Part shown: one piece after another, positions 2-32,090 of the stretch
How positions within the stretch are numbered: position 1 is the first letter of the stretch
Layout of the letters: each line of letters starts with the position of its first letter
Notes under the pieces: model-generated
Told to the model about the DNA's origin: nothing
Database searches by the model: none
The model's input: the letters and a program-made list of their open reading frames with translations, nothing else
Origin: a virus
Lineage: Duplodnaviria > Caudoviricetes
Strand: one strand, 5' to 3'
IMG/VR virus record: IMGVR_UViG_3300046368_001116
Span: 1 to 33,581 of that record
Length of the DNA stretch: 33,581 nt
Position numbers and translations under genes: made by a program

Positions 2-2185
2 TTGGGTAATCTTATGCCCAGTCTAGACTATATGCATAAATCAGGAGGCATTATTTTACCTGATGGTTCGTTCATAAAAAAGCATACCGAGCATAACATA
101 GACTTATTTGACTGGATTGAAAATAATTCAAAACATCCATTTGCTGAGAAGATGAAAAAGGCAGAGGAGGACCACAATGAAAAGTATGGCGAGGAGGAAG
201 GTTTTCATGTCTTGGAAGCAGGTTTAAATGCAGGGGCAATTAGAGTCGCCAGGGATAGCCCAAATTCTAAAAATATTTACATTCAATCCAGTGGAGAAAT
301 TCCTGGCAGACTGAAGAGGGAATTAATTGACCAGGCTATGATGACAGGTGATACCTTGATCCAGGACCGAGGGCCACGGGAACAGATAATATTTGAACCT
401 GGTAACCCTGACATAAGGTTCATGCCTGCAACAGGGCAGAAGATGCAGACCAAGTTCCGTAGGGATGGATGGTTACTGGCAGATGGTGAATTTATTGATG
501 CACAATTTAATGACCATGATGGAACACTAAACACTTTTGTAAAAAAGAATCCTGATCATCCGTTCGCTAAAAAAGTAACTGCTATTGCAGAAGGAAAGGA
601 AAGAAGAACATCCAGGGGAACAAAAGTAAAACCTAAGAAATTTAGGGCATTTAGGGAAGACGGGATCCAGGCAGGGGCAATTAGAATTGCCAATCACGAA
701 AGAAATATTCACATCGAGGGTAAACCTAACAGGACCCAAAGGGAACTAATTGAAACACTTGCAGAGAATACTGGAAGAAAGGTTTTCACTGAAGATAGTA
801 TTTACTACAGACTGGGTGTTCCCCAGGAAGATGGTAAATTATTCTATGACCCTCCTGGTAACCCTGATATTAGGTTCATGCCCTTACTAAACCTGCCAGG
901 GGACAAGAGTGTGCAGTATAAGAAGAATAAGAACATTATTGATGTAGTGTTTAAGGATGCTACAGGGCTACAGGATAAGTTTGTAACAATGGTTGAAGCA
1001 GACAGGCATGATACTGATGGTGTTCGCATGGGTGGACCCTTACACGCATTCCTGAAGAGCAATGATGTAATTGTCACAATTGACGGGGTTGATTTTAGAC
1101 CCCAATGGGCAAACCTAAAGTGGTCTACAATTAAAGGTATGATTGAACGGGTTAAACTTACTGATGATGGTCATGCACTGATTCAGATAATGGAAAAGGA
1201 AACCCATCGTTCAAATAAAGATATGTTTTCCAGGGTGCTTGGGTCTTTCCAGGATAACAGGAAAAATATGTCTGTCCTGGAACGGGAAGTTACTGCCAAT
1301 ATTTTACGGATACTGAGGAAGAGGTTTACCAAAAGTAAACCTAATGCTCAGGAAAATGCCTTCCTGAAAGACATGACTCAGTATAAGACTAAACTTACAC
1401 GGGGTAATGTTGATGAAGCAAATAAGATACTTGCTGACATTAAAAAGAATTATGGAAAAACTAAATGGTGGAATGACAAGGAAGTAAAATCCTTTGCAAA
1501 AGATTTTACTAAAGCATTTACAGATTCATCTTTTAAGGCCAGGGCAGAAATAACTAGTTACTTTTTACCCAGGGATGAAAATTCTGCCAGGATGCCATTT
1601 ATTCCTGACATTAGAAAATTGCTAAAGTCTGAAATGGATTATCATGGGGCTAAGGCAGGGGATGTTGTGGGGGTTGTCCAATTATCTAAGCATAACCTAA
1701 ATAATAAGAAGAGGGTGTTTGGTGTTTATTTTGGTGATGACCCCAAAGAATTTGCTAGAATGACTGACAATGAAAAGTTAGCTAGAAAGAAATTACTTGC
1801 TAACAAGAAATTCAGGGCACACCCGTCTTACGATTGGTTAATGCTTGGTCCAGGTGATGCAGACTTTTTTATGTTTGATAAACCTAAGAATGCAGTGCAA
1901 ATGGCACCTGACTTTGCAAAGAACCATGCTAAGTTATGGAAACAGGATGTTGCTAAATTGAAGAGCGAAACAATTAAGAAGTATGGAACTACTAAACAGG
2001 ATCCTGAAGACTTTAGTGTTACCCCTGACATAAAACAACGGACTGAAAGGTTTAAAGGCATTGATAAATTCCTAAAGGAAAGTAGTAAAAAACCATTGTA
2101 TGATCAGTCAGAATCTAATATACAAGGTGCTATGCTAAGAGGGCATAAACGGGGTGTTCCACAACTTACCCAATTCTTAAAATGA
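2..2185 (+). CDS. C-terminal part of a large multidomain (polyvalent/ejection-like) phage protein, 5'-truncated
   Basis: 727-aa ORF open from the window edge; two ~150-aa related modules, each ending in PGNPDIRFMP, resembling DIRF/YS linkers of phage polyvalent proteins. Confidence 0.6.
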   Translation: MGNLMPSLDYMHKSGGIILPDGSFIKKHTEHNIDLFDWIENNSKHPFAEKMKKAEEDHNEKYGEEEGFHVLEAGLNAGAIRVARDSPNSKNIYIQSSGEIPGRLKRELIDQAMMTGDTLIQDRGPREQIIFEPGNPDIRFMPATGQKMQTKFRRDGWLLADGEFIDAQFNDHDGTLNTFVKKNPDHPFAKKVTAIAEGKERRTSRGTKVKPKKFRAFREDGIQAGAIRIANHERNIHIEGKPNRTQRELIETLAENTGRKVFTEDSIYYRLGVPQEDGKLFYDPPGNPDIRFMPLLNLPGDKSVQYKKNKNIIDVVFKDATGLQDKFVTMVEADRHDTDGVRMGGPLHAFLKSNDVIVTIDGVDFRPQWANLKWSTIKGMIERVKLTDDGHALIQIMEKETHRSNKDMFSRVLGSFQDNRKNMSVLEREVTANILRILRKRFTKSKPNAQENAFLKDMTQYKTKLTRGNVDEANKILADIKKNYGKTKWWNDKEVKSFAKDFTKAFTDSSFKARAEITSYFLPRDENSARMPFIPDIRKLLKSEMDYHGAKAGDVVGVVQLSKHNLNNKKRVFGVYFGDDPKEFARMTDNEKLARKKLLANKKFRAHPSYDWLMLGPGDADFFMFDKPKNAVQMAPDFAKNHAKLWKQDVAKLKSETIKKYGTTKQDPEDFSVTPDIKQRTERFKGIDKFLKESSKKPLYDQSESNIQGAMLRGHKRGVPQLTQFLK

Positions 2186-2421
2186 AACTCCATAAAATAA
2201 TTCTTACAGACGAAACAATTGACATACCAGGTTACGAGGAAAGACCCTGGAATGATCTTACTTTTTTCTTCGATCCAACCAGGGCAAGTGTTGAAGAAGT
2301 TGAAGAATTGGTAAGGCTAACTGAAGAGGATAATGTGGAGGAAAATGACAACCTGGAAACAATCAGGAGGAAGTGTGATTGGTTCCCTGACACCAGTGCT
2401 TTGGATCTGTCAGAAAGCTGA
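2182..2421 (+). CDS. acidic hypothetical protein
   Basis: 79 aa; ATGA overlap with the upstream stop. Confidence 0.7.
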   Translation: MKLHKIILTDETIDIPGYEERPWNDLTFFFDPTRASVEEVEELVRLTEEDNVEENDNLETIRRKCDWFPDTSALDLSES

Positions 2422-2426
2422 CAGAT
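2405..2426. terminator. perfect hairpin ATCTGTCAG-AAAG-CTGACAGAT over the stop codon
   Basis: 9-bp perfect inverted repeat; no U-tract, so the function is uncertain. Confidence 0.4.
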
Positions 2427-2428
2427 AA

Positions 2429-2456
2429 TGTCCACTCCTGTCCACTCTTGTCCACT
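2429..2456 (+). repeat. 3x TGTCCACT at 10-bp period, putative integrase arm-type sites
   Basis: copies at 2429, 2439 and 2449, about 55 bp from the att core. Confidence 0.65.
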
Positions 2457-2509
2457 TAAACCCCTGATGAAACCTACAAACCCTCTGTTTGACAGGGGTT
2501 GAACCTTCT

Positions 2510-2547
2510 TTAAAAGGCCACTGCTCTACCGATTGAGCTACCGACCC
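2510..2547 (-). other. attP: 5' half (nt 1-38) of tRNA-Lys(UUU)
   Basis: reverse complement GGGTCGG TA GCTC AATCGGTA GAGC A GTGGC CTTTTAA fits tRNA numbering 1-38 with anticodon TTT; similarity stops at the end of the anticodon loop; integrase ~1 kb away. Confidence 0.85.
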
Positions 2548-2558
2548 ATCTCTGTTGG

Positions 2559-2571
2559 AACCAACGACTTG
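2559..2571 (+). promoter_or_regulatory. IHF-like site
   Basis: AACCAACGACTTG vs consensus WATCAANNNNTTR, one mismatch, next to the att core. Confidence 0.35.
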
Positions 2572-2603
2572 TGCCATTTTGAAAAACTTTTATTAAAAAA
2601 GTT

Positions 2604-2620
2604 TGTCAATTCAGTTGACA
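2604..2620. promoter_or_regulatory. back-to-back -35 boxes TGTCAA-N5-TTGACA (divergent promoters or operator)
   Basis: two perfect TTGACA in inverted orientation; no canonical -10 at 17 bp on either side. Confidence 0.4.
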
Positions 2621-2704
2621 GAAGGGCAGATATATCTGACACTTTGTCTGACAGAGGGCATTGGTCCAATTTAAATAACATAACCCACATATACCAAAAA
2701 AACT

Positions 2705-2980
2705 ATGAGCGACAATCTTAAAAATAAATTTACAATTAATGCTATTGCAGACTTTCAAAAAACATTCAGTGAGGAAGTTATTGGGGACCATGAAACTCAA
2801 CTTGAAATGGGTGAAACTGAAGCTACTTATTTGACTGGACTAAACTGGGGGTTGAGAATTGCAAAACAACTTTTAGAAGGCGAAAACCATTTGTTAGTTG
2901 AGAGAGAAACTACTCGCATGAAAACAAGAATATACGAGGCAGTAAAAAGAAACGAAGCTAAAGCCCCTTGTTCCATATAA
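2705..2980 (+). CDS. hypothetical early protein
   Basis: 91 aa, starts MSDNLK within a repeated leader. Confidence 0.75.
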   Translation: MSDNLKNKFTINAIADFQKTFSEEVIGDHETQLEMGETEATYLTGLNWGLRIAKQLLEGENHLLVERETTRMKTRIYEAVKRNEAKAPCSI

Positions 2981-3004
2981 TCTAACCCCCCAACTTTAAA
3001 AACT

Positions 3005-3301
3005 ATGAGCGACAATCTTAAAATTACTACCCTGGAGTCAGTTGGCTCAGGGATTGATACTAACGGAATGGTGTTCCCTCAGAACACTGATGACACATTT
3101 GACCTGGAAGATCCCATTTCCATATTCCAATGCACTGAAGAATTTCTTACTTCATTGTCCAGGGAAGATAAGGACAAGATTATTGATGTTCTTAATGACC
3201 ATGATTCCAACCTTGCGAGACAATTTCCTGATTATCAGAGAACCTGGTTCTTCTTAGCAGGGGGATTAATCCAACCCGTTGAGTCCTTTTCCCAACTTTA
3301 A
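3005..3301 (+). CDS. hypothetical early protein
   Basis: 98 aa, starts MSDNLK within a repeated leader. Confidence 0.75.
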   Translation: MSDNLKITTLESVGSGIDTNGMVFPQNTDDTFDLEDPISIFQCTEEFLTSLSREDKDKIIDVLNDHDSNLARQFPDYQRTWFFLAGGLIQPVESFSQL

Positions 3302-3306
3302 AAACT

Positions 3307-3564
3307 ATGAACATATTAGTAAAACCCTTCAAAACCCCTAATGGACCAAGGTGGATCCTCTTTACAGGAAATGACAAGACCATGTTTCTAAATGCTACAG
3401 GTGAACCTGTTTCCCTGGTGAGCGAAAATGTAAAAATTTGCACAACCAGGGCAGAGGCAAATCGTCATGCTTTAGAATTGGCAAAAGTTGTTTCGATAAA
3501 ATCAATTAAGTCCGATTATAACGGGTCACTACAAGATATTTACTACAAAAACTCAAAAAACTAA
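3307..3564 (+). CDS. hypothetical early protein
   Basis: 85 aa, repeated leader, TAATG coupling to the integrase. Confidence 0.75.
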   Translation: MNILVKPFKTPNGPRWILFTGNDKTMFLNATGEPVSLVSENVKICTTRAEANRHALELAKVVSIKSIKSDYNGSLQDIYYKNSKN

Positions 3565-4874
3565 TGACTACTTGGCAAGCAAAATTACAACCCCGTCTCA
3601 TCGGGAATTATTGGTCAATCCAGGGTTCCGTCCCCGTTTTAGGACGGGTACGGAAACAATACCCTGATCAAGAAACTGCAAACCTGGAATCTGAGAAGAT
3701 GATTACCCAGGTGAGTAATAAAATTGCAGGGGCAGAGATTCGTGAAACCCTGCTTACCAAGAGTGAGGAAGCAGATGCTCACACTGCATTGAAGATCCTT
3801 CAATCAAGTCCTGATATGCAAGGGTTAAACTTAACTGGTCTTTTAAATTGGGCAGTTTCTAATTATCGTGACGAGGCAAGCGAGAGAACTATCGAGGTTG
3901 CAAGTAAGGAATACATTGCCGAATTGGGGACCCTGAAAAGGTCCAAGACCCATATTGACGGGGTCACAAACAAACTAACCAAGTTAGCTAATTGGTTCCC
4001 TGGTAAAAAAGTTTCAGAGTTTACACCTGAGAACATTCGCCAATGGATTAGTGACACAAAGGGTGACTACGGGCCATTTGCAGGCAGGGTTGTTTCCAGG
4101 ACCACTAGGACCAACGAACGCACAAAATTGAAAGCTTTTTTTAATTGGTGTAAGGCAAGAAAATACCTGCAAGAAACTCCAGTAGATGATTCAGTAAAAT
4201 CACCAGGCATTCAACGGGCAGAAATTATCGCCCTGGATATTGACCAGGTAAAAACTTTTATGACCATAGTAGATAGTCTACCCAAGCATTTAAGGGACGA
4301 GGCAGTGCCTTACTTTGCCCTGTCATTATTTGCAGGCCTTCGTCCCCAGGAGTTAAGGCCCGTTGATGGTAGCAATGGAGTTGACTGGTCAGACTTTACC
4401 TGGAGAAAGAAGGAAAGTACCCTGGTCATCAGTTACGAAGTGGGCAAAGTTACTTCCAGGAGGGTTATCAAACTGCCTGACAATTGTGTTGCCTGGGTAA
4501 AACCTTTTGCCAAGGAGTCAGGACCCGTTGTGGCATCCTCTTACGCATCCTGGAGAGGCATTAAGGATTATGTTAGGGCCAGGGCAGGGTATAAAGTTTA
4601 CGGAAAGCATTTCACCCATATTGACTATGATTTATCAAAGGTATCAAATGATGAGTCCCGTCCAAAGTATGTTGCAGATGTGCTACGGCACACTGCCATT
4701 AGTTATTACCTGGAATCTAATGACAATAACAAGGACCTGGTTGCCAATTGGGCAGGTAATTCAAGTAAAGTTATTGATGAGCATTATCGCTCATTGATTA
4801 AAGGTACTAAAGAAATATCACCATCAAAGATGGTTGAAATATTTTGGTCTATTAAACCTATGCGAACCAAATAA
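3564..4874 (+). CDS. int: tyrosine recombinase / phage integrase
   Basis: core-binding LKAFFNWC; LFAGLRPQEL, DVLRHTAISY, AGNS and HYR motifs. Confidence 0.92.
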   Translation: MTTWQAKLQPRLIGNYWSIQGSVPVLGRVRKQYPDQETANLESEKMITQVSNKIAGAEIRETLLTKSEEADAHTALKILQSSPDMQGLNLTGLLNWAVSNYRDEASERTIEVASKEYIAELGTLKRSKTHIDGVTNKLTKLANWFPGKKVSEFTPENIRQWISDTKGDYGPFAGRVVSRTTRTNERTKLKAFFNWCKARKYLQETPVDDSVKSPGIQRAEIIALDIDQVKTFMTIVDSLPKHLRDEAVPYFALSLFAGLRPQELRPVDGSNGVDWSDFTWRKKESTLVISYEVGKVTSRRVIKLPDNCVAWVKPFAKESGPVVASSYASWRGIKDYVRARAGYKVYGKHFTHIDYDLSKVSNDESRPKYVADVLRHTAISYYLESNDNNKDLVANWAGNSSKVIDEHYRSLIKGTKEISPSKMVEIFWSIKPMRTK

Positions 4875-4929: not shown

Positions 4930-5106
4930 TCAAAAGCCCTGGTCAGTCCTCGATATTCTGACCAGGGCTTTTTTGTCGGATCTTTCTAGGATGCCCTGGA
5001 GGAACTTAATATAAGAATCTCTCAATCGGTCTTTTAATATATCTTGTTTGCAGATCTTCAGGGCCTTCATAAAGTTGGCCCCTTTTTTTCGTTCATCTTT
5101 TCTCAT
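4930..5106 (-). CDS. basic hypothetical protein
   Basis: likely start MRKDERK at 5106, ATGA-coupled. Confidence 0.55.
   Translation of the reverse strand: MRKDERKKGANFMKALKICKQDILKDRLRDSYIKFLQGILERSDKKALVRISRTDQGF
4932..4974. terminator. bidirectional intrinsic terminator
   Basis: 15-bp perfect IR AAAAGCCCTGGTCAG...CTGACCAGGGCTTTT with T-run, at the convergence of int and the left arm. Confidence 0.75.
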
Positions 5107-5327: not shown

Positions 5328-5548
5328 TAGTCCAGGCAATCTATTGATTCAATGATAACGGCAGGGCCTGCAATAGGAACCCCTGCCAGGGCAGATGCTT
5401 CCTTGTTAGGCATCTTGCCCTTCAGCTTGGCATCTTCGTCAACAATCAATTGATTCCCGTTGCCCAGGGCAACCAGTGTAATATACCCTCCCACTTTTTT
5501 CTGCAGTGCTTCCAGGGTAGTTTTTTCTTTTATAATTTCTATACTCAT
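5327..5548 (-). CDS. DUF3846-like phage protein
   Basis: LEALQKKVGGYI...IVDEDAKLKG..N..AS...IAGPAVI pattern. Confidence 0.75.
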   Translation of the reverse strand: MSIEIIKEKTTLEALQKKVGGYITLVALGNGNQLIVDEDAKLKGKMPNKEASALAGVPIAGPAVIIESIDCLD

Positions 5549-5742
5549 AATCTTTTTTTGTAGTTCAATTCATTAATTAATTTTTTAACATCCAGTGACC
5601 TGTAACGAATGGATCTGCCAATCTTTATGCAGGGCAACCTGCCTGCCTGCTCCCATCTTCTGATTGTCCTGGTGCAGACTCCTAATAAGTCTGCAACCTG
5701 GACCCTTCTCATTAAAATGGGTTCTAACTTAATTCCCTCCAT
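5545..5742 (-). CDS. excisionase-like HTH (HTH_17/MerR-type)
   Basis: VADLLGVCTRTIRRWEQAGRLPCIKIGRSIRY. Confidence 0.85.
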   Translation of the reverse strand: MEGIKLEPILMRRVQVADLLGVCTRTIRRWEQAGRLPCIKIGRSIRYRSLDVKKLINELNYKKRL

Positions 5743-12630: not shown

Positions 12631-14292
12631 ATGGCACTTGATTGGTCCCCACATCCAATATTAAAAATTCCAACCCAGGAGGAGCAGATCCAAATGGGTG
12701 CTGAAAAGTTGATAGAATATTGGGAGAGGAGAGAGGGTGCTATTGAGCGAGAACGGGAAGACCCTTTTCGATATGGTACAGAATTACCACACTGGAAAAA
12801 GGTGGATAAAATCCTGGAAGAAAAGGCAGAATTGTTACTGCTTGGTGGTAATCGTTCATCGAAAACCGAGGCAATTGCGAAGAGGGTAGTTAACTCCCTG
12901 GTAGCAAACCCTGGCAGTGTTATATGGTGCTTTACTGCTACCAGTCAAAATAGCATAGCGAATCAGCAGGCAGTGGTGCATAAGTACCTACCTGCTGAAT
13001 TTAAGAACCTGGGCAGAAGTAGGGTTCATTATGTCTCCTATTCGCAGAAGAACGGGTATACTTCCAGTAGTTTCATTTTACCCAACCGAAGCACCTGCGT
13101 ATTCCGTAACTGGTCCCAAAACATTGAGACTATTGAGGGGGGTGAAGTGGGTTGTAAGGACCAGGTAAAACCTGGAACACATAATATTGGGGTATGGTTT
13201 GACGAAGAGGTGCCCCAAAATTTCTTAAATACTGCTAGGTATAGGTGTTTATCCAGGGCCGATCCTAAAACAGGGATCCCTGCCAGGGTGATCAGTACAT
13301 TTACAACCATTTCAGGATGGACCAATGTGGTTGCTAGTTTTCTATCAGGAGCAGTTACCCTGGAAGACAAGGAAGCAGAATTATTACCTGGAGAACGGGT
13401 CCCGATTGTACAACAACCTGTACGCAAAAACGCACAGATATTATATTTCCATACGGCAGACAACCCTTACGGGGGTTGGCCTGCCATGAAAATGCAGTTG
13501 GAAGGGGCCAGACGGGATGAAGTTTTGACCAGGGCTTATGGATTACCGACTAAACCCAGTAACACCACTTTCGTTAACCTGGACGACAGGGTAGTCAAGA
13601 AGCACGAAGATATACCCTGCATAAAGGATAAAAAGAATAACCCCTGCCAGTATATACTGAGCATTGACCCTGCAGGCAGTAAATCCTGGTTTATGATCCT
13701 GGTTGCAGTTGATGTGTTTGGAGTACACTGGGTTTTAAAGGAGTGGCCTGGTGTAGATGTTGGAGAATGGGCAGATCTTGACAGGGGTGAGAAGGGTGTT
13801 CCAGGAGATGCTTCTAAACCAAATGGCAACGGAATCGGGGATTATGCCAAGATCATCAGAGATATGCTCAAGGGCATATCTGATGATGAAATACTGGGTT
13901 GCACTGATGATGTGGAAATAATTATTGACCCCAGGATGGGATCTGCAACCTATGCTAAAAGCGAGGGGACCAGTAACATAATTAGTGACTTACAGGACCA
14001 TAATATAAATGTTTACCCTGCTGAAGGGTTACCTATTGAAGATGGATTGCAGGCAATCAATTCGCTTTTATCTTATGACAAAAGCAAACCAATTGACCTG
14101 GTAAACAAACCCAGGTTGTTCTTTTCCGACCAGGTTGGAAACACCCTATTCTGTTGTATGAACTACAAGATTGATGATGGTTTGAAGGGGGTCTGCAAAG
14201 ATCCACCTGATTGCCTGAGATATGTTGCCATAGGAAATTATTCTTACCTGGAAGACTCAGAATTACGAATAACCGAATCGGGAGGATACTAA
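12631..14292 (+). CDS. terL: terminase large subunit
   Basis: GGNRSSKT Walker A, WFDEE Walker B, TFT coupling motif, SIDP nuclease motif, KDPPDCLRY. Confidence 0.93.
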   Translation: MALDWSPHPILKIPTQEEQIQMGAEKLIEYWERREGAIEREREDPFRYGTELPHWKKVDKILEEKAELLLLGGNRSSKTEAIAKRVVNSLVANPGSVIWCFTATSQNSIANQQAVVHKYLPAEFKNLGRSRVHYVSYSQKNGYTSSSFILPNRSTCVFRNWSQNIETIEGGEVGCKDQVKPGTHNIGVWFDEEVPQNFLNTARYRCLSRADPKTGIPARVISTFTTISGWTNVVASFLSGAVTLEDKEAELLPGERVPIVQQPVRKNAQILYFHTADNPYGGWPAMKMQLEGARRDEVLTRAYGLPTKPSNTTFVNLDDRVVKKHEDIPCIKDKKNNPCQYILSIDPAGSKSWFMILVAVDVFGVHWVLKEWPGVDVGEWADLDRGEKGVPGDASKPNGNGIGDYAKIIRDMLKGISDDEILGCTDDVEIIIDPRMGSATYAKSEGTSNIISDLQDHNINVYPAEGLPIEDGLQAINSLLSYDKSKPIDLVNKPRLFFSDQVGNTLFCCMNYKIDDGLKGVCKDPPDCLRYVAIGNYSYLEDSELRITESGGY

Positions 14293-14804
14293 TGCATAAA
14301 ATAATTATTGAACCCAACGAGATTGAACACCTGCTTATTATTTCAACCCTCCGTGCTTCGCATAACAGGTCAGTAAAAAGGCCTAGCATGACCATAGCAA
14401 AAAGTTTGCAGGGGTGCATTGGAGAATTGGCTTTTGCTAAGTTTTTTAATTTCTTCCCTGACTTTACCTGGGAAACCAGGACACACACTGGGACCAGTTC
14501 AAAATGGTATGATTTTCGATTAAACAACGGGAAGACTTTCGATGTAAAAACCAGTGACAAAGAAACCTTTGCCATTAACCAACAGGCAACCACTTTGAAG
14601 AACCAACCTGACTATTATGCCTTTGTGCAAACTGCTCAGGTTGACCTGGCAAAACAGATAAAAGAACAGGAGGCAATTATTCATGGTTACACTACCTTGA
14701 AACATCTCCAGTCCAAGGGGTTTGTCTCTCATTCAGGAGTGACCCCTTTTTACCTGGTAAAAAAGTCAAACATAAAACCACTAACAAAAAAGCAATATGG
14801 TTAA
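14292..14804 (+). CDS. PD-(D/E)XK-like endonuclease
   Basis: GCIGELAFAK...YD...FDVKT; TAATG-coupled to terL. Confidence 0.6.
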   Translation: MHKIIIEPNEIEHLLIISTLRASHNRSVKRPSMTIAKSLQGCIGELAFAKFFNFFPDFTWETRTHTGTSSKWYDFRLNNGKTFDVKTSDKETFAINQQATTLKNQPDYYAFVQTAQVDLAKQIKEQEAIIHGYTTLKHLQSKGFVSHSGVTPFYLVKKSNIKPLTKKQYG

Positions 14805-15099
14805 GGTAACAAAAGAAGAACTTGAATCCCTTCGTAATGAAGGGATGACATATAAGAAGATAAGCGAGAAGTTTGAAATTTCAGTTTCGACCATAAAGAG
14901 AAAACTGAAAAGTCCTTCAAACCACTACCCCCGTTACCAAAGTGCTAAGGTGACCAGGTTACTGGTCAATGCCAGGTTAATTCAGGTTGAGTATGATGGT
15001 ATAACAACAATTGCCGTAAAGAAACCTGGTTACTTATATAAATTGAGACAGGAAGTTACCCTGGAATTAGTTGATGAAAAAACCTGCAGAGTCCTATGA
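14797..15099 (+). CDS. HTH DNA-binding protein
   Basis: EGMTYKKISEKFEISVSTIKR. Confidence 0.75.
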   Translation: MVKVTKEELESLRNEGMTYKKISEKFEISVSTIKRKLKSPSNHYPRYQSAKVTRLLVNARLIQVEYDGITTIAVKKPGYLYKLRQEVTLELVDEKTCRVL

Positions 15100-15328
15100 G
15101 TCAAGCCAGGGCCGTGCTGACAGGATTGACACACTGCTTAGATACATGGTTGTGCGTGAAGCATCCCTAACTAAACCAGGAGAAGACTATGCCCCCAAAA
15201 CATTAAAACAGATAGCAGAGTTTTGTGGAACTGACATAATGGTTATCTATAGAGCAGAACAATCTGCATTAAGAAAGTTCCAGTCTAAAATCAAAGATTT
15301 TGATTTATACTTAGGATTGGATGGATGA
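15074..15328 (+). CDS. second sigma region-4-like HTH protein
   Basis: TLKQIAEFCG......RAEQSALRKF. Confidence 0.65.
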   Translation: MKKPAESYESSQGRADRIDTLLRYMVVREASLTKPGEDYAPKTLKQIAEFCGTDIMVIYRAEQSALRKFQSKIKDFDLYLGLDG

Positions 15329-17399
15329 ACCAAATGAACAAATTTATTCTGACGAACCCGATATACCTCACCTCCAGGATGACCTGGAAAGATGCAGGGT
15401 AAACCTTTCCTTCTATAAGGACAAAAGCGATACTGCCAGGGATACACGATTTGGTGCCTGGGCAGGCAGAAACTACAAGACCAATCGCAAGGAGGGTCAG
15501 GATGCTTTTCCCTGGCAAGGTGCTTCAGACCAGGCAGTTGGCTTAATCGATCAAATTGTTGGTTCCGATGTAGCAATGTTAAAACGGGCCGTATCAGGTG
15601 GAAACTTAAAGGCAGTTCCAACTGAACCCACTGATATTAGGGTTTCTTCCCTGGTATCAAAATTCCTTAAATGGACCCTTTCAGAGATGGAAGAATTTAA
15701 CAGGGAATGCTCGATACTTGCGAATAATGTTCTCATGTACGGAAATGGTATTTTAGGCACTTATTGGACCAGGAAGGTTGATAGGTTTTACGAGGCAATT
15801 ACCCTGGAGGAAATTGCCGAGCAGGCCCCTGAATTAGCAGAGTCCATAATGGCAAAAGACGAGTCTGCCAGGGAATTACTTTCCCAGGCATTTCCAAATT
15901 TAAAAAAGAAACGGGTTAACAAAATCATTAAGGACCTGGCAACGACAGGGCAGGCCGAAATTCCTAAAGAAAGAATGGTAGTAAATCGACCCTCCGTAAA
16001 AAGTTACGAAATTGGCAGGGACATAATTTTTGATTCAAATGTTTTATCTGACATTCAAAATGCCAGGGCAATATATTGTATTCACCATCACTCACCTGAG
16101 TCATTAAAAGAAATGATTTTCACTCAAGGTTTTGACCCTGAGTTTGTTGACGAGTTAATCGAAAAGAGCAATCAAAACGCTCCTTCCAGTGACTACACTG
16201 ATTTTCCATCCAGGAACCATGATGACCTTGAACACTTTGAGGGATTGATAAAGTTGGTATCAGTTTACAGGAGGGAACTAGATGAGGACGGGGTGCCATT
16301 AATTAGTCACACGATTTTTTCTGAAGATTCGGACAATTATGCAAAGCACGAATTATCATCTTACTCCCAGGGTAAATATCCTTTTACAAGTTTCTGCAGA
16401 GAAGCGATAAACCATCGGATCCTGGATTCCAGGGGATTATGTGAGATTTTACAACCTTACGAGCAGGCCATTAAGGTTGAGATTGATTCACGAATTGACC
16501 GAGCATCACTTTCTACAATTCCACCAATAACTTATTTGGTTGGAAGAAAACCTGAACGGATTGGACCTGGTAGTTTTGTTCCAGTCAGAAGACCAGGTGA
16601 AATTTCCTTTATGGATATTCCTCCTCAATCCCCTGCTTCAAGTGAAGTGGAAAATGAGTTGCGAATGATTGCCAACAAAATTGCAGGCAGACCAACCAGT
16701 GCTGAAGACCAGGTTGAAGCAAACTTGATTCGTCAAGAAATGGTATCTATGTGGTTATCTAACTGGAGGCCAGTGCTTAAACAGATTTGGCATTTGCAAC
16801 GCACCTACGGAGGTGCAGAGCAATGGACCAGGGCAATGGGAAATGAACAGGACCTGGAAGTTGCGTTTGAAGAAACCAGTGAAAAATTTGATTTTGAATT
16901 AACCTTTAATGCTGACTCGTTGGACCAGGAAAAAGTTCTTGATAAACTAAAAGCACTGGGTGAAGTATTCGCTCAGTACGACAGGCAAGGGCAAGCTAAC
17001 TTTGGGGAATTAATGAAGTTATTTGCTGAAGCAATTGACCCGAATTTGGCAGACCGATTGATTATGCCCCAACAGGCATCGAGCGATAAGGAAATTGAAG
17101 AGACTAGTTCTGATTTAGCTAAAATCGCATCAGGCCAGGTTGTTAATGCTCCTGAAAATGCAAACACAGATTTGCGTAAACAAGTTGTCCAGGGATACCT
17201 TGAAGGAACGGAAGAAATTCCAGGTCAGGACATTCAAGAACGATTGCAGTCTGATGAAGGGTTCAAGGCCAGGTTAGAAAATTATATTAAGCAAATTGAC
17301 CACCAGGCCCAACAACGAAAAAACGCTCTGACGGGCAAGCTAGGGGCACCTCCAGGTAATGTTCCTGGAACATCTCAGGCACCACAACAAAATGGATAG
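15321..17399 (+). CDS. portal protein (P22/SU10-like)
   Basis: 692 aa between terL and scaffold; YGNGI, YPF, SRGLCE..Q pattern. Confidence 0.85.
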   Translation: MDEPNEQIYSDEPDIPHLQDDLERCRVNLSFYKDKSDTARDTRFGAWAGRNYKTNRKEGQDAFPWQGASDQAVGLIDQIVGSDVAMLKRAVSGGNLKAVPTEPTDIRVSSLVSKFLKWTLSEMEEFNRECSILANNVLMYGNGILGTYWTRKVDRFYEAITLEEIAEQAPELAESIMAKDESARELLSQAFPNLKKKRVNKIIKDLATTGQAEIPKERMVVNRPSVKSYEIGRDIIFDSNVLSDIQNARAIYCIHHHSPESLKEMIFTQGFDPEFVDELIEKSNQNAPSSDYTDFPSRNHDDLEHFEGLIKLVSVYRRELDEDGVPLISHTIFSEDSDNYAKHELSSYSQGKYPFTSFCREAINHRILDSRGLCEILQPYEQAIKVEIDSRIDRASLSTIPPITYLVGRKPERIGPGSFVPVRRPGEISFMDIPPQSPASSEVENELRMIANKIAGRPTSAEDQVEANLIRQEMVSMWLSNWRPVLKQIWHLQRTYGGAEQWTRAMGNEQDLEVAFEETSEKFDFELTFNADSLDQEKVLDKLKALGEVFAQYDRQGQANFGELMKLFAEAIDPNLADRLIMPQQASSDKEIEETSSDLAKIASGQVVNAPENANTDLRKQVVQGYLEGTEEIPGQDIQERLQSDEGFKARLENYIKQIDHQAQQRKNALTGKLGAPPGNVPGTSQAPQQNG

Positions 17400-22797: not shown

Positions 22798-23085
22798 ATG
22801 CCAAATGTCAAAATTACAGAACTACCTGCCATTGGTGACCTGGATATTACCAACGATGATATTTTCCCAGTTGTGGATGCTCCAAATGGAGGGGTCCCAG
22901 TTACAAAAAAACTATCTGTTGCAAAGCTATTTAACACTGCACCAGTGAAGAGCGTGGCAGGCAAAACGAATGGTGACATTACCCTGGATTCTAGTGACCT
23001 GGATAACACTGCAGACATTACCCATTATTCTGACTTGGGTGATTTTGAACTATTTAAGCAAACATTTAATAATACGATAATATGA
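22798..23085 (+). CDS. small tail-associated protein
   Basis: MPNVKITELP, TKK, PVKSVAGKT motifs typical of tail-fibre segments. Confidence 0.6.
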   Translation: MPNVKITELPAIGDLDITNDDIFPVVDAPNGGVPVTKKLSVAKLFNTAPVKSVAGKTNGDITLDSSDLDNTADITHYSDLGDFELFKQTFNNTII

Positions 23086-26000
23086 AGATTTTAGAAAAAG
23101 TGGCAGGCCTTATCGGTCTTGAATTTAATGCAGTACGAGTAAGCTTAGGTAATGTTCAAAATATATCTAACTTGGCAATGCCCAGGGCAGAAGCAGAAGC
23201 AGAATTTGCGACCCAGGTAAGTTTAGGCACTTATACAAAATCAGCAGATATTTTAATCAGTCACTACACTAAAACCCAGGCCAATAATTTATTCAGTACC
23301 CAAGTATCTTTAAATTCAGGATTAGGGGACCGATATACAAAATCAGAAAGTGTTGCCCTATTTGCCGACAAAAATAACCTGGCAAATAATTATACTAACA
23401 CCACAACCCTGGTTGAGAATTATGCAACTAAGGCAAGTCTTGGTGCGATAGGGGAACAATTAGTTAGTCTTTCAGCATCGATATTTAGTGTTAATCATGT
23501 TTCAGGGGATTCAATGGACCTTTCGGGTAATCTCTCAATCGGGGGTACATTTACTGCCGTTGGTGATGCCAGGGCACAAAATGTTTCGGCCCTGGCACAA
23601 CTCTCAGGCATGAGGGCAGAGTTTGGAGATGCTACTAGTCAAGCCAATGGCACAAATATCATTGATGTTAAAGGGGGTGCAAACATCCAGGGTAAATTAG
23701 TTGTTTCTTCACTCGATGTGAAGGGAACAACTAACATTGTAAACACAACTAGTGTTGAAGTTTCTGACAATTTTATAGAATTAAATAAAGCTCAAGACGG
23801 GAGTGTAACTGCAAGTGAGGCAGGCATTACAATCAACAGGGGACTAGTTCAGGATGGTGTTGACGGGAATGGTGACCCAGTAATGGTGGAGGCCGATGAT
23901 GCCAAATTACATTTTAATAATGTTACAGGAAAGTGGTCCTTAACTAATGATGGTCTTGCCCTGGCAGAATTAAGTGTTGGAAAGATTTACTCTTCCAATT
24001 CATTTGCAAATTTAGCAGGTTTTCCTCTCGCAAGTTCATTCCCAGGAATGGTTGCAATCGCAGTTGATACTAAAATAAATTACATTTCTTCAGGAACTAC
24101 TTGGGTAGCAATTGCAACACAAGCGAATCTCGATTCAAGCATAAACAACCTGGGCACTTTTGCTGAGTTTCAAGCTCAATTTCTTGGATCTTTGGATTCA
24201 GATGGTGATGGAATTTCAAATGCAAATGAGGATATTGACGGAGATAATATTCTTGATGGAGTGGATCCTGATCTAACTGATGGTCCCTTAGCAGATGCAG
24301 ACGGGGACGGGGTTATTAATTCCCTGGATGCATTTCCAAATGACCCAAATGAAACAACTGATACTGATGGAGACGGGGTAGGTGATAATGCTGACCCTGA
24401 CCCCAATGATGATAGTGTAACTGGGGATGCAGATAATGACGGGGTAGATGATTTAATAGATGCCTTCCCTAATGATGGAACAGAAGATACTGATTCAGAT
24501 GGGGATGGGGTAGGGGATAATGCAGATGCCTTCCCTAATGACGGAACAGAAGATACTGATTCAGATGGAGACGGGGTAGGTGATAATGCTGACCCTGACC
24601 CTAATGATAATAGTGTAACTGGAGTTGACTCAGATGGTGACGGGGCTGACGATGCAGTCGATGCATTCCCAAATAATCCAAATGAACAATTAGACACAGA
24701 TGGTGACGGGATAGGTAACAACGAAGATTCCCATCCTGACGATCCTAGTCAATCAGGAGTTGATGCAGATAATGACGGGATTGATGATGCAATAGATATA
24801 GACCCAACTGATCCATTAAGTTCGGGACAGGATGCAGACAACGATGGTATTGATGATGCATTGCAAAATTCGCCTGGTTATGACAAAGACGGAGATGGAA
24901 TAATTAATAGTCAAGATTCTCATCCTGACGATCCTAGTCAATCAGGAGTTGATGCAGATAATGACGGGGTTGATGATGCAATAGATATAGACCCAACTGA
25001 CAATACAAAATCAGGAGTAGATTCTGATAATGATGGGGTTGATGATGCAGTAGATTTATACCCAAATGACAATACACAATCAGGAGTAGACTCTGATAAT
25101 GATGGGATTGATGATGTAGTAGATACACACCCAAATGATAATACACAATCAGGGGTAGATGCTGATAACGATGGAGTTGACGATGCAGTAGATTCAGACC
25201 CATCAGTTAATGATAATTTTGTTGATGTAGATGGGGATGGGGTATGGGATAGTGTAGACTCCAATACAACCCCTGCAGGTCAACCTGGATCCGATACGAG
25301 TGTTAGTAGTACATTTATCGGGTGGGGGACAAGCGATCTAATGCTTGACCTTAGTCAAAGTAGTGGTCCTCACTACGCAAGAGAGTACCTGGCTCATATA
25401 TATGAGAATTTGGGTACATATTATTTGGGTCAAGGTTGGGACGATATTGCTATGGCCGAAAGTAAACGAGTTACGATACCAGGCCTGAGTAATTACTTCA
25501 TTACTGGTTTTGAGTATTCTCTTGCCACTTCAGATGACGGGCAAAGTGCAGGGCTTTTCGTCCACATTGTTAACGGAGATTTAGTGCTTCAAGTCCGAAA
25601 CGGGAATAAAGTTGGGTATAGAAAAATCTATGACTCAAGCACTCAGCAATTTGTAAACGGATTCTCACTCAGTAATTACGCATTTCTTGGAGGTGACCTT
25701 GCTAATCAGGGGTACATTAAAAGCTTTAACCTCAGTTACGATGTTACTAAAGTGCAGGATTCTGATGGTGATGCAATTAGTGATTTTGAGGATGCATTTC
25801 CAAATGACTCAACTGAACACCTGGATACGGATGGGGACGGGACAGGTAACAATGCAGATACGGACGATGATGGTGACGGGGTCCTAGACAATGTTGATAC
25901 TCATCCTTTGGATTCAACAAAGTCATCAGTTCCATTTGAAACTATAACGATGCAGAAAGTTGTAAGTGGATGGGCAGTTGGTGCCCCAACATTTACTCCC

Positions 26001-26351
26001 CTGGCCGATGAAATTGGTTACGAAACTACAACAGGATCCACTGACTATCCCTCCAAATATTATAAAACATATCAATTAGGTGATTTTACACTGGAGATAA
26101 CTTCTCTTCAAACAACCTTAACGAATGCAACCCTGGGGATTAATCAGGTCATTGCCACAGGGGTCCAACACCTTGAGGACTCTGCTCTCAGGGCATTAGG
26201 TATGTATAATGAATCAAGTCCAATTATGAGTGACCACTCAACTGCATCGTCAGCAATTGGAGGAGGGGATCTGGCTTCAATCACATTCCTTCCAACAGAA
26301 CCTAGTGTCATAAGTCATTATTATAATAAAATTATTTTAACATTAAACTAA
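23082..26351 (+). CDS. tail fibre/adhesin with thrombospondin type-3 Ca-binding repeats
   Basis: YTK repeats, VSDNFIELN..AGITINRG shaft motif, many DxDxDGxxDxxDxxP repeats. Confidence 0.8.
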   Translation: MKILEKVAGLIGLEFNAVRVSLGNVQNISNLAMPRAEAEAEFATQVSLGTYTKSADILISHYTKTQANNLFSTQVSLNSGLGDRYTKSESVALFADKNNLANNYTNTTTLVENYATKASLGAIGEQLVSLSASIFSVNHVSGDSMDLSGNLSIGGTFTAVGDARAQNVSALAQLSGMRAEFGDATSQANGTNIIDVKGGANIQGKLVVSSLDVKGTTNIVNTTSVEVSDNFIELNKAQDGSVTASEAGITINRGLVQDGVDGNGDPVMVEADDAKLHFNNVTGKWSLTNDGLALAELSVGKIYSSNSFANLAGFPLASSFPGMVAIAVDTKINYISSGTTWVAIATQANLDSSINNLGTFAEFQAQFLGSLDSDGDGISNANEDIDGDNILDGVDPDLTDGPLADADGDGVINSLDAFPNDPNETTDTDGDGVGDNADPDPNDDSVTGDADNDGVDDLIDAFPNDGTEDTDSDGDGVGDNADAFPNDGTEDTDSDGDGVGDNADPDPNDNSVTGVDSDGDGADDAVDAFPNNPNEQLDTDGDGIGNNEDSHPDDPSQSGVDADNDGIDDAIDIDPTDPLSSGQDADNDGIDDALQNSPGYDKDGDGIINSQDSHPDDPSQSGVDADNDGVDDAIDIDPTDNTKSGVDSDNDGVDDAVDLYPNDNTQSGVDSDNDGIDDVVDTHPNDNTQSGVDADNDGVDDAVDSDPSVNDNFVDVDGDGVWDSVDSNTTPAGQPGSDTSVSSTFIGWGTSDLMLDLSQSSGPHYAREYLAHIYENLGTYYLGQGWDDIAMAESKRVTIPGLSNYFITGFEYSLATSDDGQSAGLFVHIVNGDLVLQVRNGNKVGYRKIYDSSTQQFVNGFSLSNYAFLGGDLANQGYIKSFNLSYDVTKVQDSDGDAISDFEDAFPNDSTEHLDTDGDGTGNNADTDDDGDGVLDNVDTHPLDSTKSSVPFETITMQKVVSGWAVGAPTFTPLADEIGYETTTGSTDYPSKYYKTYQLGDFTLEITSLQTTLTNATLGINQVIATGVQHLEDSALRALGMYNESSPIMSDHSTASSAIGGGDLASITFLPTEPSVISHYYNKIILTLN
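24196..25260 (+). repeat. coding tandem repeats (TSP3-like)
   Basis: near-identical DNA blocks, e.g. ~24725-24810 vs ~24915-25000. Confidence 0.85.
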
Positions 26352-30216: not shown

Positions 30217-30585
30217 ATGGGCAATATAATTCCAGGGACAACATTTGTTAATGGTCAACTAGTCACTGCTAGTGACCTTAACAATCAACTTGAAAACGCA
30301 ACTATAAATTCTGATGTGATTACACCAGGAATGCTCAACTCAACTTTGATTACGGGGAATAGCGAATTGGAAGAACTTGATGTGAAGGACGAAGATTTTT
30401 TCTTGGTTTGGTCATCAGTCAATAATGCATTTCGTAAAGTTAGAAAAGGTTTCATCGGCTCAGGTTCAGGTTCATCGGGGGGAAGTGCGTTTACTTTATC
30501 AGGGACCACTTTAACCATGACAAGTGGTGGAACAGGAACTGCAACATTTTCATTATCGGGTTCAACATTGACCATTACAACATGA
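30217..30585 (+). CDS. small tail protein
   Basis: GTTFVNGQLVTASDLN; two F.LSG.TLT repeats. Confidence 0.65.
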   Translation: MGNIIPGTTFVNGQLVTASDLNNQLENATINSDVITPGMLNSTLITGNSELEELDVKDEDFFLVWSSVNNAFRKVRKGFIGSGSGSSGGSAFTLSGTTLTMTSGGTGTATFSLSGSTLTITT

Positions 30586-32090
30586 CCACACAAACCACAA
30601 ATCTAGCATCCGTTGATTCTATAGATTACAACGGAGCAAATGTTGAAACTGCCATAATGGACGGGACCACAATTTGGGCCAAAATTGACGGGGTTGCTTA
30701 TTATATAGGCCAAACAATTTGGGTTAATGGAGTAGAGAAAACAATAACATCATTGTCAGGAGGATTAATATTCTTTGAGGGTGGAGGATCTACTGGATCT
30801 GTTGACCCTACTGATGGATCCGTATCAGAGACGGACCCAGGGACAGGTGACAATTCAGGTGACAACTCAGGTGACAATTCGGGTGACAATTCGGGTGACA
30901 ATTCGGGTGGAACAGGTGCCCCAAGTGCAGACGATATTGATGGTGACGGGATCCCAAATTCGTCCGATACAGACAATGCAAATAATCATATTTATTCTGA
31001 GCTTAGAAAGGGCTATTCAAATGTAAATGCATTTGCTAATATTAATCCTGATGTTGATTCAGAGGAACTAATAACTGGTTTCCGTACTGATCGGACAGGT
31101 TTTGTTGGTGGGGGGCACGATACTTCATTTTACGCATCGGACGGAATTATTAGAGGTGTAAATGCGTATGCCGATAATTCGGATAATGTAAGAAGAAATG
31201 AAGTTATTCTCACATTAAAAGATCTGCTCTATGGAAGTAATGGTTATACTTCAGATTGGTTAATGGTGCAGATTATTGACTCAAGTGATAATGCAGGCAT
31301 TACAACCACATTAAAATTAAACAAGACTGAAGATCATTTAAATTTTTGGAGGGGGCATTCATGGCATTCAGACCAGTTGAGTGCTTATGATGCACAAAAT
31401 GATAATTTATACGGGGCTTCAGTGCTTGGAAATTCAGGGCAAACTGGACCTAATGCAACATATACTGGTGGATTAGGTTCCAACTTTGCAGGCAGATGCT
31501 TTTTCGTAAACATTGCATCAAGTATCCCTGATGAATTAAGAATTAAATTTGTAGGAGCAAATTCCTTTAGTGCTTTGCAGTACATGGGAGGCATTTCTTA
31601 TATTAGTGTTAAATTGTTAAAGGCTCAACTGACAGGTTTGGAAAACAACCCAGGACTTGGAATTTACAGATCCTCAACGGATACGCACAAATCCAGTTAC
31701 TACGATGTGGTCCATAACTATGGAATATTTAATGGAATTGGGTCAAATGGAGGTTATACCATGACTATGGGCGATAGTTTGCAACCTTTCAAATTAGGCA
31801 GTAGCACACCAGGTGAAAAACTTACAATTGGTAAAATTTATTATGTATCCCCTGCAGGGAACAACAAATGGTACTTAGCCCAACTTTACATGATGGTAAA
31901 CTGGGTTAAAACCAATGACCAACCGACCTTTATAACTCAAGCACGATTTGAACCGATCAAGACTTATTCGGAAATGCCAAACACTGGAATCCTGGAGGTA
32001 AATGGGGCCAATGAAAAAACGGACAGAATAGGTCCCCTAGATTCATCGGGGATGCCAACAATGCCTGCAGGTGGAGTAGAGGGAGTATAA
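30582..32090 (+). CDS. putative tail/adhesin protein
   Basis: 502 aa; GDNS linker repeat and one DIDGDG motif. Confidence 0.6.
   Translation: MTTQTTNLASVDSIDYNGANVETAIMDGTTIWAKIDGVAYYIGQTIWVNGVEKTITSLSGGLIFFEGGGSTGSVDPTDGSVSETDPGTGDNSGDNSGDNSGDNSGDNSGGTGAPSADDIDGDGIPNSSDTDNANNHIYSELRKGYSNVNAFANINPDVDSEELITGFRTDRTGFVGGGHDTSFYASDGIIRGVNAYADNSDNVRRNEVILTLKDLLYGSNGYTSDWLMVQIIDSSDNAGITTTLKLNKTEDHLNFWRGHSWHSDQLSAYDAQNDNLYGASVLGNSGQTGPNATYTGGLGSNFAGRCFFVNIASSIPDELRIKFVGANSFSALQYMGGISYISVKLLKAQLTGLENNPGLGIYRSSTDTHKSSYYDVVHNYGIFNGIGSNGGYTMTMGDSLQPFKLGSSTPGEKLTIGKIYYVSPAGNNKWYLAQLYMMVNWVKTNDQPTFITQARFEPIKTYSEMPNTGILEVNGANEKTDRIGPLDSSGMPTMPAGGVEGV
30846..30905 (+). repeat. 5x 12-bp tandem repeat GGTGACAAYTCR (GDNS)
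   Basis: read directly from the sequence. Confidence 0.9.

Follow-up and report, generated by a model that had tools for sequence, protein, structure and literature searches.

The presence of exactly half of a tRNA gene beside a phage integrase raises the question of whether the half serves as the phage attachment site (attP) and, if so, how the host tRNA would be restored and transcribed after integration. The half is a 38-mer at positions 2547-2510 (minus strand) of the window, here the whole of a linear virus record of 33,581 bases with a completeness estimate of 83%. Gene content analysis of the window revealed a primase, an exonuclease, a resolvase, an SU10-type capsid protein and a tyrosine integrase (3564-4874). 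The 38-mer is present in single copy and corresponds exactly to nt 1-38 of a 76-nt cellular tRNA-Lys(TTT), its last base being the end of the 7-nt anticodon loop; the host bases that follow nt 38 are missing from the window after it. Phage genes flank it on either side, with ORF 2-2185 on the left and small ORFs and the integrase, about 1 kb from the tRNA half, on the right. The original prediction had read the locus in this way, as tRNA positions 1-38 ending right after the anticodon loop and lying between phage genes, and both readings were confirmed.

No full tRNA was detected in the window by ARAGORN or Rfam, and the 3' half of the host tRNA-Lys shared no 12-mer with the whole window. The window thus carries no 3' part of a tRNA, the fragment that defines a standard tRNA attP. 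It carries the tRNA from nt 1, and the corresponding integrated geometry, a 5' fragment upstream and an intact gene downstream, was found in G006, G065, G075 and G108. The block of host tRNA identity contains the 7-nt loop and stops at the loop end, as in the anticodon-loop class of sites. The sequence comparisons indicate that the 38-mer is an attP core and not a decayed gene. It is very probably the core of a temperate marine Opitutales phage that recombines within the loop of tRNA-Lys(UUU), with the gene being rebuilt at the integrase end. The 7-nt loop (2510-2516, minus strand), where identity stops in the window, in five relatives and in attL-like fragments of host genomes, is the predicted crossover (overlap) region, and the complete block of patch and loop spans 2510-2547 (minus strand). 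Integrase and host bending proteins would bind the arms and exchange strands within the loop. The resulting attL would consist of the host promoter, the stranded 5' half and the distal arm; attR, at the integrase end, would comprise the proximal arm, the phage 5' half and the host 3' half. Within this explanation, we infer the integration by the phage of the window itself and the roles of the arm motifs.

Host assignment and relatives carrying a tRNA half

A scan of 185,579 species genomes (one per species), using a pattern with 37 of the 38 bases fixed, yielded 63 loci from 61 genomes. Their titles all name Verrucomicrobiota or taxa within it, mostly Opitutales. The match was exact (38/38) at 60 of the 63 loci, and since all of them fall within Verrucomicrobiota, the 38-mer is not a chance resemblance. 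Complete tRNA-Lys(TTT) genes were present at 59 loci, and two others were cut by contig ends. The remaining two (L008 and L012) showed a promoter-like upstream region, then exactly nt 1-38 and then foreign DNA, which in L012 runs on into a C5-methylase and a weak Rep match. Another locus of the same MAG (L005) has the same upstream sequence, over the 16 nt available, followed by the intact gene. The distant integrase homologues that bear names were Verrucomicrobiota integrases as well. The expected match to a cellular tRNA-Lys was therefore found at 63 loci, exclusively in Verrucomicrobiota, and the proposed use of the 38-mer as a host-identification tag holds to about the order level but not at finer ranks, as 61 genomes share it; judged from these matches, the tag is indicative of Opitutales and not of a species. 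The exact 38-mer gave no match to viral contigs, in a collection that may omit the window's own and near records.

Integrase scans recovered 4 viral and 51 metagenome loci; a single-sequence integrase scan returned just one weak locus. The site was found in five loci with integrases 67-95% identical to that of the window, and all five carry a tRNA half and none a full tRNA, a count from which six close loci (L077-L082) were excluded as their sequences extend only 3-567 nt upstream of the integrase match, with no half seen. In L074, L075 and L076 (integrase identity of 95, 75, and 73%, respectively), the 38-mer is identical and the flanks have diverged, and in L066 and L083 (68 and 67%), the same slot is occupied by nt 1-38 of tRNA-Thr(UGU). 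Between L066 and the window, identity is 93% over window positions 865-2726 and 71% over the integrase region, and this combination of a Thr half and a diverged integrase with a conserved backbone indicates that target and integrase changed together.

These relatives also bear on two other origins of the 38-mer. It might be what is left of a phage tRNA-Lys gene in decay, lying near the integrase by accident, given that a sister clade encodes a full tRNA-Lys and that a T-loop-like GGTTCAA follows the half. The full genes of the sister clade, however, are Lys(CUU) genes of another sequence, located behind the integrase and not in this slot, while the half matches the host at every base, its Lys and Thr versions stop at the same position, and it is followed by a conserved arm that is also present in loop-only sites. 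Relatives with a full tRNA in this position would have favored decay, and five of five carried the half; with the Thr halves of L066 and L083 and the prophage G006 already refuting it, this origin is highly improbable. The probability that a phage contig was wrongly joined to a host tRNA during assembly is lower still and close to nil: assemblies do break at the core, which is shared with host tRNAs, but such a chimera is already refuted by the recurrence of the structure in independent contigs whose flanks have diverged (L074, L075, L076, L066, and L083).

Recombination site, integrase and sister clade

Alignment of the sites on the loop revealed an arm architecture with fixed spacing in nine related sites, comprising TGTCA/TGACA repeats that end 91-93 nt left of the loop, an IHF-like motif at -55 and TGTCA at +87. 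Seven TGTCA/TGACA pentamers occur in 2400-2660 compared to 0.7 expected, which makes this the densest 261-nt stretch of the window for the motif. Repeats of the arm type were thus found on both sides of the core (-91 to -93 and +87), at motif level only. The integrase-proximal arm (2604-2653) holds four of the repeats, conserved in relatives, and the distal arm (2408-2423) holds an inverted TGTCA/TGACA pair; both are predicted to contain arm-type integrase sites. The TGTCA at +87 from the loop is shared by the window, L074, L075, L076, L066, and L084. Elsewhere in the window, five TGACA copies with a 12-bp period (30848-30900) lie inside ORF 30582-32090 and represent a four-residue coding repeat.

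Between the core and the proximal arm, 55 nt left of the loop, the window contains a putative IHF site (2559-2571, minus strand) with one mismatch to the IHF consensus. A looser IHF-like motif was found at -55 in all six half-type arms and in L067, and L074 matches the full consensus. An imperfect palindrome with A/T tracts (2579-2609) is complementary at 12 of 13 positions in the window and at 9-11 of 13 in five relatives. Its outer TTGACA would be one of the arm repeats, not a promoter box; the same TGACA occurs 91-93 nt from the loop in arms without a tRNA half. On the other side of the core, three GTGGAC repeats with a 10-bp period (2430-2455, minus strand; +55, +65, and +75 from the loop) are candidate excisionase or accessory sites, being present in three copies in the window and L074, in two in four other relatives and in one in L084 and L067. 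The roles of all these motifs as arm, IHF and excisionase sites are predicted by analogy with the lambda paradigm. A motif to the right of the core had been considered as a core-type mirror of the D-arm sequence GGTAGAG and was dropped, as loop-only arms have no left partner. A scan for the arm motifs gave six loci, two known family members and four chance matches without a window protein; scanning for the arm together with the D-arm returned 14 loci; none matched the 17 window proteins tested, and 13 hold tRNA genes called by ARAGORN.

The integrase (3564-4874, plus strand; 436 amino acids) is transcribed away from the tRNA half and was assigned to phrog_1 (E 1e-20), with no Pfam match at 1e-3. 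Residues R260, K295, D372, R375, N399, and Y408 are invariant in 30 sequences; D372 and N399 replace the two His of the canonical motif, and the catalytic R, K, R, and Y positions are maintained. The profile match and the catalytic residues together show that a tyrosine integrase lies near the site. Its sole match in the phage collection was the integrase of Akkermansia phage Chantilly, with 23% identity. A small HTH protein (5545-5742, minus strand) matches phrog_66, "excisionase and transcriptional regulator" (E 7e-11), and is a candidate excisionase. The left attP flank is formed by the large ORF 2-2185 (plus strand), which is open at the window start, ends 325 nt from the core and is 98% identical over 439 amino acids in the sister phage L066; judged from its position, it is probably the end of the virion module. 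Three small ORFs (2705-3564, plus strand), each preceded by a repeated start motif, form a variable cassette region between attP and the integrase, and are missing in L075 and L083, where the integrase directly follows the arm. The repeat at their starts measures 20-29 nt (2698-2726, 2989-3026, and 3291-3310), and the presence of other small genes, or none, in this region of relatives suggests cassette shuffling. A hairpin with A and T tails (4930-4975) separates the integrase from the early genes convergent with it; it resembles a bidirectional terminator by eye but was not among the features listed by the scan. Internal repeats were also observed at 24298-25258 and 25790-25858 within a 1089-amino acid ORF (23082-26351) that probably encodes a surface or fibre protein with repeats.

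A sister clade, with integrases 47-52% identical to that of the window where full length, supports the earlier claim that the crossover occurs in the anticodon loop, since there the loop is the sole core. The loci L084, L067/L086, and L087/L068 have the same arms, a core consisting only of the loop CTCTTAA, and an A/T-rich spacer in place of tRNA nt 1-31 of the window. Such loop-only cores point to a crossover in the loop and to a 5' half acting as a repair patch. The 31 nt on the left side of the loop appear to be a patch that is not needed for recombination, as the sister clade has the spacer at this position and, behind its integrase, a whole tRNA. With a crossover in the loop, either tRNA half could act as the patch; a possible reason for the choice of the 5' half is that a slot of about 40 nt is free in the left arm, the right-side motifs beginning right after the core.

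The full tRNA lies just behind the integrase in 13 of 15 sister-clade loci (L067, L068, and L084-L096; partly redundant), 12 of them being Lys(CUU) and one Arg(CCU). The latter (L096, 254-327) is similar in its body to the tRNA-Lys(CUU) of its relatives, with the anticodon altered. Promoter boxes of the full tRNAs often fall inside a terminator-like hairpin (L084, L067/L086, L068/L087, L088-L094, and L096). In L091, arm and loop run straight into the 3' half of a tRNA-Lys(CUU); the initial 27 nt of this half agree with a gene from Opitutales and not with the tRNA that the element itself encodes. This locus, which extends just 152 nt past the loop, is likely an attR and belongs to an island rather than a phage; its interpretation as a 3'-type attP was judged less likely, the right-arm motifs being missing. 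Downstream of the full tRNA in L089 and L091, a sequence resembling, by eye, the start of a type I restriction-modification methylase was noted, from which it follows that this integrase clade would also serve non-phage islands. In a tree of 37 integrases, the loop-only/full-tRNA loci and one tRNA-less member formed one group (support 100/98) that sits with the half-type loci, with G006 outside. This topology, taken without a formal test, suggests that 5' repair preceded the whole-tRNA strategy.

Integrated forms and the promoter of the rebuilt tRNA

The related prophage G006 (36,230 bases) has an integrase 37% and a capsid protein 61% identical to those of the window and shares 11 of the 17 window proteins tested. 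One of its ends carries nt 1-41 of tRNA-Gly(UCC) with TTGACC at -45, and the other carries a whole tRNA-Gly gene diverging from the integrase. This is the arrangement predicted for the phage of the window, and its geometry agrees with the original prediction that the rebuilt tRNA, made of a phage 5' half and a host 3' half, is separated from its native promoter. When the host flank of G006 was sought in 401 genomes of the phylum, its tRNA part alone matched. Compared to window positions 12631-17399, two large conserved genes (51% identical) have the opposite orientation in G006, indicating an inversion within the family. The search for integration junctions was thus successful for a related prophage but not for the window's phage, for which no attL or attR was found in the contigs of four runs; these contigs break at the core and cannot reliably span 38 nt shared with host tRNAs. 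No close integrase was present in 401 Opitutales genomes, the best having about 28% identity.

The 5' half of tRNA-Lys(UUU) followed by non-tRNA sequence was found in six of the 401 Opitutales genomes, and on this basis tRNA-Lys(UUU) is a recurrent 5'-type target in Opitutales. In G065, G075, and G108, the full tRNA-Lys lies, respectively, 7.4, 8.6, and 1.5 kb downstream of the 5' fragment, and no integrase was detected in these three islands by profile search. In G144, the full tRNA-Lys gene diverges from a PF00589 integrase and the 5' fragment is on another contig; G117 has the 5' half without a second tRNA-Lys copy. The 7.4-kb island (L174; G065:C3:2892070-2899570) lies upstream of tRNA-Lys(UUU), holds a TIR-WD40 gene and a DDE transposase, with no integrase detected, and ends in the 5' half with a diverged copy of the host promoter region. 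The 8.6-kb block (L175; G075:C5:319170-327870), likewise with no integrase detected, holds an RND efflux system and a histidine kinase between fragment and full gene. At about 12460-12520 of L181 (G092), a damaged tRNA-Lys(CUU) 5' half is joined to a normal 3' half; the joined sequence diverges from an integrase, lies upstream of tRNA-Thr(UGU) and was not called by ARAGORN. More distant Opitutales integrases are mostly found downstream of a co-oriented tRNA, the usual layout. Three loci without the usual upstream hexamer (L032, L061, and L057) were considered as attR candidates and dropped, as no integrase was found in them and L057 has housekeeping neighbors. As G108 yielded no further copy of the 5' half of tRNA-Thr(CGU), L129 and L130 count only as cases of an integrase divergent from a tRNA.

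Host upstream regions contained TTG[AC]C at -58 to -34 in 56 of 60 cases. Such a hexamer was present in one of eight half-type arms or attR junctions (L076), compared to five of eight full tRNAs of phages; the full tRNAs of the sister clade scored above shuffles in five of eight cases. Upstream of the half in the window, no host-like promoter was found: the host-trained score was 5.7 against a host median of 18.2, with 10 of 60 shuffles as good, and in a generic promoter scan 67 of 100 shuffles matched the score. These scans are crude and of low power, and the host-trained one misses the native promoter of G144. By the host-trained scan, a promoter is present in the islands of G065 and G075, and the score of the G108 attR is circular, as this sequence appears to be part of the training set (L039). 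The possibility that a TTGACA at -62 is a -35 box was discarded, since this hexamer has no -10 partner and recurs at the same distance in arms without a tRNA half.

The tRNA-Lys(UUU) is needed for reading AAA codons, which in one host gene number 32 against 20 AAG, and a stable lysogen must therefore somehow transcribe the rebuilt gene. We infer that transcription would start from a weak or atypical promoter on the phage side. A bolder version, which is rather unlikely, has the rebuilt tRNA-Lys(UUU) lacking an ordinary promoter and being transcribed from a phage-controlled element in the integrase arm; AAA reading would then depend on the prophage state, a cost that would have driven one branch to lose the 5' patch and to carry a whole tRNA with its own promoter. 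Alternatively, the rebuilt tRNA may have no working promoter at all, so that lysogens would be non-viable or short-lived and the 5' half would repair nothing. In agreement with this, seven of eight half-type arms or attR junctions showed no promoter, compared to the five of eight sister-clade tRNAs above shuffles, and no lysogen of the clade was found among 401 genomes. Such a failure is nevertheless improbable, since the half is base-perfect from nt 1 for three different tRNAs, beyond what a loop-only core needs, the sole full tRNA-Lys(UUU) match of G144 sits at such a junction, G006 is an assembled prophage, and the absence of promoters comes from weak scans, of which the host-trained one fails on G144. 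The half might instead be kept because it gives rise to a small RNA, either a regulator or a decoy for defences that cleave tRNAs. One contig of an RNA library spans 2220-2539, but contigs reveal neither strand nor transcription, no promoter was found, and the attachment-site geometry fully accounts for the position and boundaries of the half, which makes a small RNA as improbable as gene decay.

Relation to known systems

A Mesorhizobium loti element, reported by Zhao and Williams in 2002, is said to reverse the orientation at its target and to carry the 5' end of the target tRNA; unlike the present phage, it would be a cryptic island in an alphaproteobacterium. In the Islander collection, 159 of 3919 islands have a 5' tDNA fragment (PMC4383910). 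As far as the accessible part of that paper describes, they resemble the present case in the terminal 5' fragment upstream of an intact gene, the integrase inside and the anticodon-loop crossover class (site A), and differ from it in that here a free attP is found in a phage, with a host lineage and an integrase clade that are not discussed in that part (PMC4383910).

According to the available sections on marine pelagiphages, the host tRNA is complemented by its own 5' end in several isolates; in others it is disrupted, and the phage encodes a full copy (10.1101/410191). The 40-bp core of HTVC028P corresponds to the 5' end of tRNA-Asn, with junctions verified by PCR (available part of PMC8477408). 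From these partial texts, phages of the HTVC028P/HTVC019P type are similar to that of the window in being marine, in encoding a tyrosine integrase and in having a core that corresponds to a host tRNA's 5' end, but they infect SAR11 hosts and use other tRNAs, and no pelagiphage integrase appeared in the phage-collection search (PMC8477408; 10.1101/410191). The original claim that 5' replacement is uncommon is therefore correct overall (4% in Islander) but not for pelagiphages, in which it is common and experimentally shown, within the portions of these sources at hand. The word "promoter" does not occur in the accessible text of 10.1101/410191, and the accessible portions of a tycheposon preprint and of PMC4611503 contain nothing on orientation.

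Group G11 of the uvMED marine phages was assigned to Verrucomicrobia by integrase/att identity (PMC3861242). It is alike in being a marine Verrucomicrobia phage with a host assigned via a tRNA att match; the tRNA and the half are unstated in the part of the paper available, and the group may overlap with the phage family of the window (PMC3861242). A literature search covering few subscription papers found no description of this site in an Opitutales phage. The mechanism is thus already published for pelagiphages and islands, and what is new is the host lineage and a clean comparative set, with no new principle: a family of uncultured marine phages is assigned to Opitutales and is very probably temperate. 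The set offers one natural series that bears on two points. The first is the change of target tRNA within a single integrase clade (Lys-UUU, Thr-UGU, Gly-UCC, and Lys-CUU) with constant spacing of the attP arms; the second is the means by which a lysogen would retain an essential tRNA that is cut from its promoter, either a 5' patch or complementation with the whole gene.

Complementation of this second kind, termed tRNA-dependent lysogeny, was shown in the mycobacteriophage Fionnbharth and its relatives (PMC10865867, seen in part). The phage of the window, with its 38-nt core and no full tRNA in 33.6 kb, differs from that system, and the actinophages repair with the 3' half (PMC10865867, same part). 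The sister clade fits the sequence definition given there, namely a short core, no rebuilt tRNA and a phage tRNA with a matching isotype, as observed in L084, L067/L086, L068/L087, and L091, and is thus a candidate for tRNA-dependent lysogeny in Verrucomicrobiota phages. Related integrases of the Fionnbharth system also switch between repair and complementation, according to the same part of the source (PMC10865867).
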